Below, piece after piece: positions 12,843 through 64,000 of a stretch of 64,000 nt of DNA. Position 1 is the stretch's first letter. Every line of letters begins with the position of its first letter. Position numbers and translations under genes: made by a program. Location: positions 7,130,001 through 7,194,000 of the forward strand of contig NC_090348.1 of the NCBI RefSeq assembly GCF_035084215.1, in the 5' to 3' direction. The notes under the pieces are model-generated. The model made no database searches. It had not been told where the DNA came from and saw nothing but the letters and a program-made list of their open reading frames with translations. The stretch comes from Heptranchias perlo. Lineage: Eukaryota.

Positions 12843-13108
12843 TGCATGGGAACACAATCACCTCCAAGTTCCCCTTCAAGTCACACACCATCTCAACTTG
12901 GACATATAAATCAGCCGTTCCTTCATCATCGCTGGGTCAAAATCCTGGAACTCCCAACCCCAAACAGCACTGTGGGAGCACCTTCACCACACGGACAGCA
13001 GCGATTCACGAAGGCCCACCACCACCTTCTCATGGCAATGAGGGACAGGCGATAAATGCCAGCCTTGCCAGTGATGCCCACATCTAGAGAATAAATTTTT
13101 AAAAAAAC
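12843..13108 (+). mobile_element. 3' end of the CR1/L2-group LINE family at 55151-57655
   Basis: GCTGGGTCAAAATCCTGGAACTCCC..CACCACCACCTTCTC..GATAAATGCCAGCCTTGCCAGTGATGCCCACATC then A-rich tail. Confidence 0.8.
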
Positions 13109-61365: not shown

Positions 61366-64000
61366 GGGTAAGGTAGCATAGTGGTTACTTTACTGGACTA
61401 GTAATCCAGAGGCCTAAACTAATAATTCGGAGTTATGAGTTCAAATCCAGCCATAGCAGCTGGGGAATTTAAATTCAATTAAATAAAAATCTGGAATGAA
61501 AAAAAAAAACTAGTATCAATAATGGTGGCCATGAATCTACCGGATTGTCATAAAAAGCCATCTGGTTCACTAATGTCCTTTAGGGAAGGAAACCTGCCGT
61601 CCTTACCCGGTCTGGCCTATATGTGACTCCAGACACACAGCAATGTGGTCGATTCTTAATCGTGCTCTGAATTGGCCGAGCAAGCCACTCAGTTGTAAAA
61701 TCTCGCTAAAAAAAGTCATAATAAGAATAAAACCTGACTGACCACTAGGCACCGGACACGACAACGGCAAACCAAGCCCAGTCGACCCTGCAAAGTCCTC
61801 CTCACTAACATCTGGGGACTTGTGCCAAAATTGGGAGAGCTGTCCCACAGACTAGTCAAGCAACAGCCTGACATAGCCATACCTTTCAGCCAACGTCCCA
61901 GACTCTTCCATCACCATCCCTAGGTATGTCCTGTCCCACCAGCAGGACAGACCCACCAGAGATGGCGGTACAGTGATATACAGCCAGGAGGAAGTGGCCC
62001 TGGGAGTCCTCAACATTGACTCCGGACCCCATGAAATCTCATGGCATCAGGTCAAACATGGGCAAGGAAACCTCCTGCTGATTACCACCTACCGTCCTCC
62101 CTCAGCTGATGAATCAGTCTTCCTCCATGTTGACCACCACTTGGAGGAAGCAATGAGGGTAAGCAAGGGCACAGAATGTACTCTGGGTGGGGGACTTCAA
62201 TGTCCATCACCAAGAGTGGCTCGGTAGCACCACTACTGACCGAGCCCCGAAGGACATAGCTGCCAGACTGGGCCTGCGGCAGGTGGTGAGTGAACCAACA
62301 CGGGGAAAAACCTACTTGACCTCATCCTCACCATCTACCTGTCGCAGATGCATCTGTCCATGACAGTATTGGTAGGAGTGACCACTGCACAATCCTCATG
62401 GAGACGAAGTCCTGTCTTTACACTGAGGACACCATCCAACGTGTTGTGTGGCATCAACACCGTGCTAAATGGGATAGATTCAGAACAGATCTAGCAGCTC
62501 AAAACTGGGCATCCATGAGGAGCTGTGGACCATCAGCAGCAGCAGAATTGTATTTCAGCACAATCTGTAACCTCATGGACCAGCATATTCCTCACTCCAT
62601 CATTACCAACAAGCCAGGGGATCAACGAGGAGTGTAGAAGAGCATGCCAGGAGCAACACCAGGTGAACCTAAAAATGAGATGCCAACCTGGTGAAGCTAC
62701 AACACAGGACAACATGCATGCTAAACAGCGGAAGCAACATACTATGGACAGAGTTAAGCGATTCCACAACCAAAGATCAAAGCTCTGCAGTCCTGCCACA
62801 TCCAGTCATGAATGGTGGTGGACAATTAAACAACTAACAGGAGGAGGAGGCTCTGTGAACATCCCCATCCTCAATGCTGGCAGAGTCCAGCACGTGAGTG
62901 CAACAGACAAGGCTGAAGCGTTTGCAACCATCTTCAGCCAGAAGTACCAAGTTGATAATCCATCTTGGCCTCCTCCCGATATCCCCACCATCACAGAAGC
63001 CAGTCTTCAGCCAATTCGATTCACTCCACGTGATATCAAGAAACGGCTGAGTGCACTGGATACAGCAAAGGCTATGGGCCCCGACAACATCCCATCTGTA
63101 GTGCTGAAGACTTGTGCTCCAGAACTAGCCGCGCCTCTAGCCAAACTGTTCCAGTATAGCTACAACACTGGCATTTACCAGACAATGTGGAAAATTGCCC
63201 AGGTATATCCTGTCCACAAAAAGCAAAACAAATCCAATCCGGCCAATTACCGCCCCATCAGTCTACTCTCAATCATCAGCAAAGTGATGGAAGGTGTCGT
63301 CGCCAGTGCTATCAAGAGGCACTTACTCACCAATAACCTGCTCACCGATGCTCAGTTTGGGTTCCGCCAGGACCACTCGGCTCCAGACCTCATTACAGCC
63401 TTGGACCAAACATGGACAAAAGAGCTGAATTCCAGAGGTGAGGTGAGAGTGACTGCCCTTGACATCAAGGCAGCATTTGACCGAGTGTGGCACCAAGGAG
63501 CCCTAGTAAAATTGAAGTCAATGGGAATCAGGGGGAAAACTCTCCAGTGGCTGGAGTCATACTTAGCACAAAGGAAGATGGTAGTGGTTGTTGGAGGCCA
63601 ATCATCTCAGCCGCAGGACATTGCTGCAGGAGTTCCTCAGGGCAGTGTCCTAGGCCCAACCATCTTCAGCTGCTTCATCAATGACCTTCCCTCCATCATA
63701 AGGTCAGAAATGGGGATGTTCGCTGATGATTGCACAGTGTTCCATTCCATTCGCAACCCCTCAGATAATGAAGCAGTCTGTGCCCGCATGCAGCAAGACC
63801 TGGACAACATCCAGGCTTGGGCTCATAAGTGGCAAGTAACATTCACGCCAGACAAGTGCCAGGCAATGACCATCTCCAACAAGAGAGAGTCTAACCACCT
63901 CCCTTTGACATTCAACGGCATTACCATCGCCGAATCCCCGACCATCAACATCCTGGGGGTCACCATTGACCAGAAACTTAACTGGACCAGCCACATAAAT
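61366..64000 (+). mobile_element. CR1/L2-group LINE with a tRNA-derived SINE-like 5' end, running off the window edge
   Basis: A-box TAGCATAGTGG (61374-84), B-box GTTCAAATC (61439-47), SINE body to ~61695, then APE (KVLLTNIWGL..QPDIAI; TTYRPP; GDFN; SDH) and RT (YRPISLLS, DIKAAFD, GVPQGS, FADD); several frameshifts. Confidence 0.9.
61374..61447 (+). promoter_or_regulatory. type 2 Pol III internal promoter (A and B boxes)
   Basis: TAGCATAGTGG fits TRGCNNARYGG; GTTCAAATC fits GTTCRANNC. Confidence 0.7.

Follow-up and report, generated by a model that had tools for sequence, protein, structure and literature searches.

The junction at which a tRNA-like head passes through a conserved non-coding body into an APE-RT reading frame, found in a LINE at the end of a 64,000-nt stretch of Heptranchias perlo DNA (NC_090348.1, positions 7,130,001 to 7,194,000 of the forward strand; hereafter the window), was confirmed as a property of the whole family and is not a local accident. 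Judged from its sequence, the element belongs to the elasmobranch Zenon family of LINEs, which is already known and whose architecture was previously unremarked. In the best explanation overall, to which we give a probability of roughly 0.6, the element would be transcribed by Pol III, translated from a non-AUG codon with participation of the body, primed for reverse transcription by its A tail, and reduced by deletion to short derivatives. The Zenon element here is a 3.25-kb LINE with a single ORF, no ORF1 and a poly-A end, and the positions of its parts are collected in Table 1.

Table 1. Positions of the Zenon copies in the window and of the parts of the full-length copy.
Feature	Position	Strand	Remarks
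Full-length elasmobranch Zenon LINE copy	61366..64000	+	3252 nt, 617 nt of which lie beyond the window end; 9-A tail
tRNA-Gln-like head	61366..61462	+	anticodon arm duplicated (61393-61409 and 61414-61430)
Pol III A box TAGCATAGTGG	61374..61384	+	identical form in 16/20 copies
Pol III B box AGTTCAAATCC	61438..61448	+	identical form in 13/20 copies; core common to tRNA-Gln
Conserved non-coding body	61510..61704	+	nearly invariant between sharks and a ray; candidate element for translation initiation; a single compensatory pair (61561:61633)
Hairpin with 7-nt anticodon-like loop	61673..61687	+	CUAGCAA in most copies, CGAGCAA in the window copy; could pair with GCU at 61705; post hoc
Inferred ORF start GCT and Arg/Lys-rich N-terminal extension	61705..61791	+	GCT 9 nt after CAGTTG; TAA at 61696; no in-frame ATG
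APE endonuclease domain	61792..62450	+	disrupted in the window copy
Reverse transcriptase domain	63224..63967	+	
Second Zenon copy	55153..57667	-	5'-truncated within APE; 3' tail complete
Old SINE-sized derivative	7756..8136	-	head, body and 3' tail; ORF deleted

The A box, the B box, the conserved body up to 61704 and the APE motif KVLLTNIWGL with its Asn at 61807, all described in the initial annotation, are present in the sequence, and the element indeed offers neither room nor frame for an ORF1. Regarding the APE motif behind the body, the annotation was right in motif and position, but the ORF appears to start earlier, with a basic N-terminal extension of ~29 codons before the motif. The window copy is broken by a TGA at 61735, by deletions near 61877, 62301, 62333 and 62626, and by one additional base near 62161. 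Its RT domain was recognized as RVT_1 (E 3e-39), and the APE domain was recognized as Exo_endo_phos_2 on an unbroken copy (E 9e-14). No wholly intact Zenon copy was found among the copies examined, and in 18 of 20 copies the tail is a run of 6-9 A. The two Zenon copies of the window are inverted to each other, ~3.7 kb apart and 92% identical over the compared part. At 12845-13105 and 50027-50255 lie old fragments from the 3' end of this LINE lineage (71-83% identity).

An exact body-to-APE pattern gave 889 matches in this genome, and the control gave none. The DNA search scored 40 hits out of 4503 candidates, all 40 of which span head to APE, and the flanks of 30 retrieved copies were mutually unrelated. 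Upon extension, 19 of 20 copies ran from the head to the tail region, these 20 loci having been chosen from 29 other loci in favor of those that ran on, and four of the nine omitted loci end early. When copies were picked by APE alone, 23 of 29 extended to 14 nt or less from the head start and the remaining six were cut inside the head or body, with another leader in none of the 29; two of the picked copies look like one segmental duplication, and the APE query held the window frameshift, so that the picks are enriched for copies with an indel there, which leaves the head result unaffected. Full copies diverge by 2.2-4.8% from the column majorities, and the head-body-APE junction is shared by an older subfamily of 77-80% identity. 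The concern that the junction might be specific to this locus was dispelled by these exact matches and APE-picked copies, which have it in common genome-wide, and the concern that the family consensus might carry an upstream ORF1 or a Pol II UTR was dispelled as well, as no copy shows an ORF1 or another UTR. SINE-sized elements bearing the same head do exist, as would be needed if the window locus were the product of a 5'-truncated LINE inserting by chance next to a SINE. However, we give such an insertion next to no chance, and chance adjacency was ruled out by the 889 exact junctions against a control of zero, the junction being present in two subfamilies and in five other species. The boundary could not be defined by target-site duplications because those left by the family are at most 4-6 nt; at least 5 nt are shared in 4 of 18 copies (null 0.02) and at least 8 nt in none of the 18.

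The body motif matches six supplement rows of PMC13343379, all of them elasmobranch Zenon. The comparison applies to the initial ~400 nt of each row, where seven of the published Zenon rows, from five elasmobranch species (CarCar, RhiTyp, ScyCan, SquAca and HypSab), open with the same head, body and junction, by eye and by motif search, and three of the seven display GGTTCGAATCC. Five published Zenon-1 rows measure 3.24-3.31 kb, the same length as the window element, so that published elasmobranch Zenon shares with it the first 400 nt, the length, the absence of ORF1 and the poly-A end. In the hagfish and coelacanth Zenon rows of this supplement, the head is absent and T runs are present in the first 400 nt. 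Zenon is described in elasmobranchs, coelacanth and hagfish as always lacking ORF1 and having poly-A (Stuart et al. 2026, PMC13343379). The absence of ORF1, which had initially been regarded as unusual, is therefore normal within the Zenon clade (PMC13343379, PMC6740152), and since it was already known, only the head is new. The main text of PMC13343379 mentions neither tRNA nor Pol III, and tRNA is also absent from its supplement; the head goes unremarked there, and the start codon is undiscussed in the passages covered. In the covered text of a whale shark preprint, CR1-Zenon is named merely as a repeat class. In our RT tree, which had no labelled Zenon RT, the window RT fell at a poorly resolved position among relatives that bear no labels, separate from the canonical vertebrate CR1 clade (100/98).

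An ungapped alignment of the head with the tRNA-Gln(CTG) of this genome matches at 27-28 of 43 positions, from about tRNA position 1 (one base before), and the second copy of the anticodon arm sits before the B box. A pattern built from the anticodon arm and B box of the head recovers the tRNA-Gln genes of this genome. ARAGORN called no tRNA in the window and misses the element's own head, and the Rfam tRNA scores were below threshold, at 16.8 bits (E 1.5) for the window and 19.6 bits (E 0.04) for another copy (L040). Between species, the head is less conserved than the body in the published Zenon rows, and the B box is shortened in the stingray row. Among distant relatives, ARAGORN detected no tRNA head in the 60 of 80 metagenome loci scanned and a box-motif scan of 64 long-ORF metagenome loci gave one B-box-like word, on contigs many of which may lack the 5' end of the element. 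tRNA-Gln genes repeated in a large tandem array (period ~3.1 kb) were also seen at G000:C38:2.5-8.9 Mb, with more than 70 matches among those listed.

Vertebrate Pol III terminates at four or more T. The 20 full copies contain six T4 runs in 62,779 nt (~0.1/kb), compared with 359 A4, 204 C4 and 128 G4 runs, and at none of 3315 column windows is a T4 run present in more than 10% of the 20 copies. Other LINE segments of this genome contain 274 T4 runs in 68,264 nt (4.0/kb), the T-poorest of these LINEs 33 in 11,733 nt (2.8/kb), and 64 related ORFs from 80 metagenome loci range from 2.3 to 15.1 T4/kb at a higher T content. Codon-aware nulls, for which the C-terminal stretch used was partly off-frame, predicted 3.6-5.4 T4 runs, with P(0) of 0.015 and 0.003. 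Markov nulls of order 1 and 2 did not reject chance (P 0.06-0.36 and 0.33-0.79, respectively), and these nulls absorb the very effect under test. The element strand is T-poor (20%), pooled avoidance of NTT codons was not significant (p 0.12), and old-subfamily copies have 0.54 T4/kb, for which decay may account. In public runs, words of the element were covered to 58-83% in DNA runs of four organisms and to 52% in two possible RNA runs, figures that are not evidence of expression. Considering that a T4 run common to the copies is absent and that the 5' end lies at the tRNA +1 position, Pol III use of the element becomes likelier and, on these sequence features, seems probable. Pol III would initiate at the first G of the element, read through 3.3 kb owing to a strand without a T4 terminator, and terminate where the flank has its first T run. 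Target-primed reverse transcription is established LINE biology, and the encoded A tail would prime the RT in this manner.

In most copies, stops are found 30-45 codons upstream of the APE motif and are followed by no in-frame ATG before or within APE; the APE stretch of one copy (L049) contains no Met. Most related metagenome ORFs carry Met near their start, and two homologues (P0004 and P0005) have a similar basic extension that is Met-initiated. Among 81 young copies, 61 have a length from the body end to APE that preserves the frame, as do 16 of the 21 old ones (non-coding control, 23/22/18), and the GCT is placed 9 nt after CAGTTG in 61/81 young and 12/21 old copies; by eye, the GCT of the dogfish row SquAca_Zenon-1 is shifted out of frame by one base. 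Short AUG uORFs are present within the body. The reading frame appears to start at the conserved GCU just behind the conserved 195-nt body, and this position gives a weak hint of IRES-like initiation of the Zenon ORF. The RNA would probably be uncapped and translated from a non-AUG codon near this GCU, where the conserved body would recruit or position the ribosome.

Among type 6a-6d IRESs, translation most often begins at GCU (PMC12221177; PMC10275262), and a review brought up the idea that non-LTR elements might contain such IRESs (PMC3894237). Like the dicistrovirus type 6 IGR IRES, the element has an RNA of ~165-195 nt before an AUG-less ORF that would start with GCU, and a putative anticodon-like hairpin just upstream. 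In contrast to that IRES, the loop of the Zenon body would pair with the GCU itself and not with the preceding triplet. The loop is complementary to GCU in 36 of 68 young and 1 of 12 old single copies, compared post hoc with a shuffle rate of ~0.008. The compensatory pair is U-A in 84 of 92 young and A-U in 34 of 39 old copies (null P 0.09), and the folding stability of the body is not unusual (z -0.58). No Rfam IRES model matched the element, and with this result and a single compensatory pair, the nested PKII/PKIII with L1.1 motifs of type 6 was not found. Neither an HDV-like ribozyme nor a 2A motif was seen by eye. It is an unlikely extension of our reading that the element operates entirely without Pol II and the cap pathway, with a 3.3-kb Pol III mRNA whose body is a factor-independent, tRNA-mimicking IRES starting APE-RT at the GCU.

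As a doubtful but serious alternative, the head could be a captured relic, with Pol II transcription from a body-internal or host promoter and translation of the ORF via AUG-independent reinitiation after a uORF. LINEs are generally transcribed by Pol II (PMC5786205, Discussion), the conservation of the body exceeds that of the head, and the body contains a 17-codon AUG uORF whose end lies ~80 nt upstream of the GCT and which is undamaged in young copies and, by eye, in three published rows. However, a relic would leave unexplained why the 5' end coincides with tRNA +1, why the A and B boxes are kept across sharks and a ray, and why T4 runs are scarce.

In a further alternative, the RNA is made by Pol III, capped afterwards like some pre-tRNAs, and then scanned, the APE frame being reached by reinitiation or by a -1 frameshift from a +1-frame uORF that overlaps the start of APE. 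In yeast, pre-tRNAs made by Pol III are reported to be capped (PMC13451320), the overlapping +1-frame AUG uORF is open in most young copies, and an additional +1-frame ATG occurs in 82 copies and in published rows. On the other hand, the old subfamily has mostly ACG and ATA at both AUG sites, differences between the subfamilies within the extension leave the amino acids of the APE frame unchanged (ACT/ACC/ACG and CGG/AGG, by eye), and no conserved slippery heptamer was seen, all of which makes this route very unlikely. The +1-frame uORF was also dropped as the true N-terminus, given the ACG and ATA of the old subfamily and the synonymous variants.

Turning to the short elements, 98 exact body-to-tail junctions with gaps of at most 30 nt were found, with many breakpoints, one of which recurs at a GTT microhomology. 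Diagnostic bases assign 26 short elements to the old and 21 to the young subfamily, and as they carry markers of both, they would have arisen from the LINE more than once. The SINE-sized head-body-tail elements look like products of repeated internal deletions of the LINE, which would leave elements resembling ordinary tRNA SINEs. The initial annotation's picture of a SINE fused to a LINE is accordingly not demonstrated; since the SINE-like elements look LINE-derived, the head may come directly from a tRNA gene, or it may come from an older SINE. Body motifs were absent from two MetaSINE supplement files, gave one unrelated match in bivalve SINE supplements, and in the full-text literature matched two unrelated plant papers. 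With tRNA-derived SINEs (SINE2), the element shares a tRNA head with A and B boxes, a conserved body, a LINE tail and a short A end, but it is 3.25 kb long and encodes APE-RT, and only its deletion derivatives are short and non-coding; SINEs are said to be unable to encode protein (Kojima 2018, PMC5786205). The lepidopteran Zenon is, like the shark element, a single-ORF 3.3-kb LINE with repeated short derivatives of its 5' and 3' ends formed by microhomology-associated internal deletion (PMC6740152). Its derivative Persaeus is stated to have no tRNA homology or Pol III promoter (PMC6740152), whereas the shark derivatives look like true SINEs because they carry a Pol III promoter.

In the literature searched, no account of a coding LINE driven by Pol III was found, a scope that ends short of Repbase, Dfam, subscription papers and bioRxiv supplements, where an earlier mention may exist. 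The nearest precedent for a tRNA-headed coding LINE is a sentence on RTE-1_DAn in Kojima 2018 (PMC5786205), according to which this element and its relatives are ORF-bearing LINEs with a tRNA-like sequence matching many SINE2 heads. Unlike shark Zenon, RTE-1_DAn is an insect element of the RTE clade, and the position and function of its tRNA-like sequence are not given in the text covered. The converse, SINEs that carry LINE heads, is described in Matetovici 2016. The split between LINEs and SINEs rests on Pol II-coding versus Pol III-non-coding elements, and a protein-coding Pol III-type family kept across sharks and rays would, if true, break this rule and provide an example from nature of a long mRNA made by Pol III. 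Deletion of the ORF would be a one-step route to SINEs. Two questions become testable as such, namely the origin of SINE bodies and the start of translation in ORF1-less LINEs, and if the IRES reading were true, conserved SINE bodies could be left-over IRESs of such LINEs.

TpA sites in the Zenon copies are unusually variable (CTA 9.0%, ATA 5.0%, TAG 5.0% and TTA 4.8%), changing to all three other bases. Other non-CpG contexts vary by ~1-4%, and the TpA excess may be genome-wide or specific to this RT, the control family having too few copies. Elsewhere in the window, an inverted repeat with perfectly matching 99-nt arms around a 16-nt spacer (40353-40566) is kin to inverted arms at 3855-4104 and 5745-5960 and looks like a repeat fold-back. 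A 411-nt inverted repeat of 97% identity (4224-4634 and 5215-5625, 580 nt apart) is nested in a second inverted pair and may represent a DNA transposon or an inversion of recent date.
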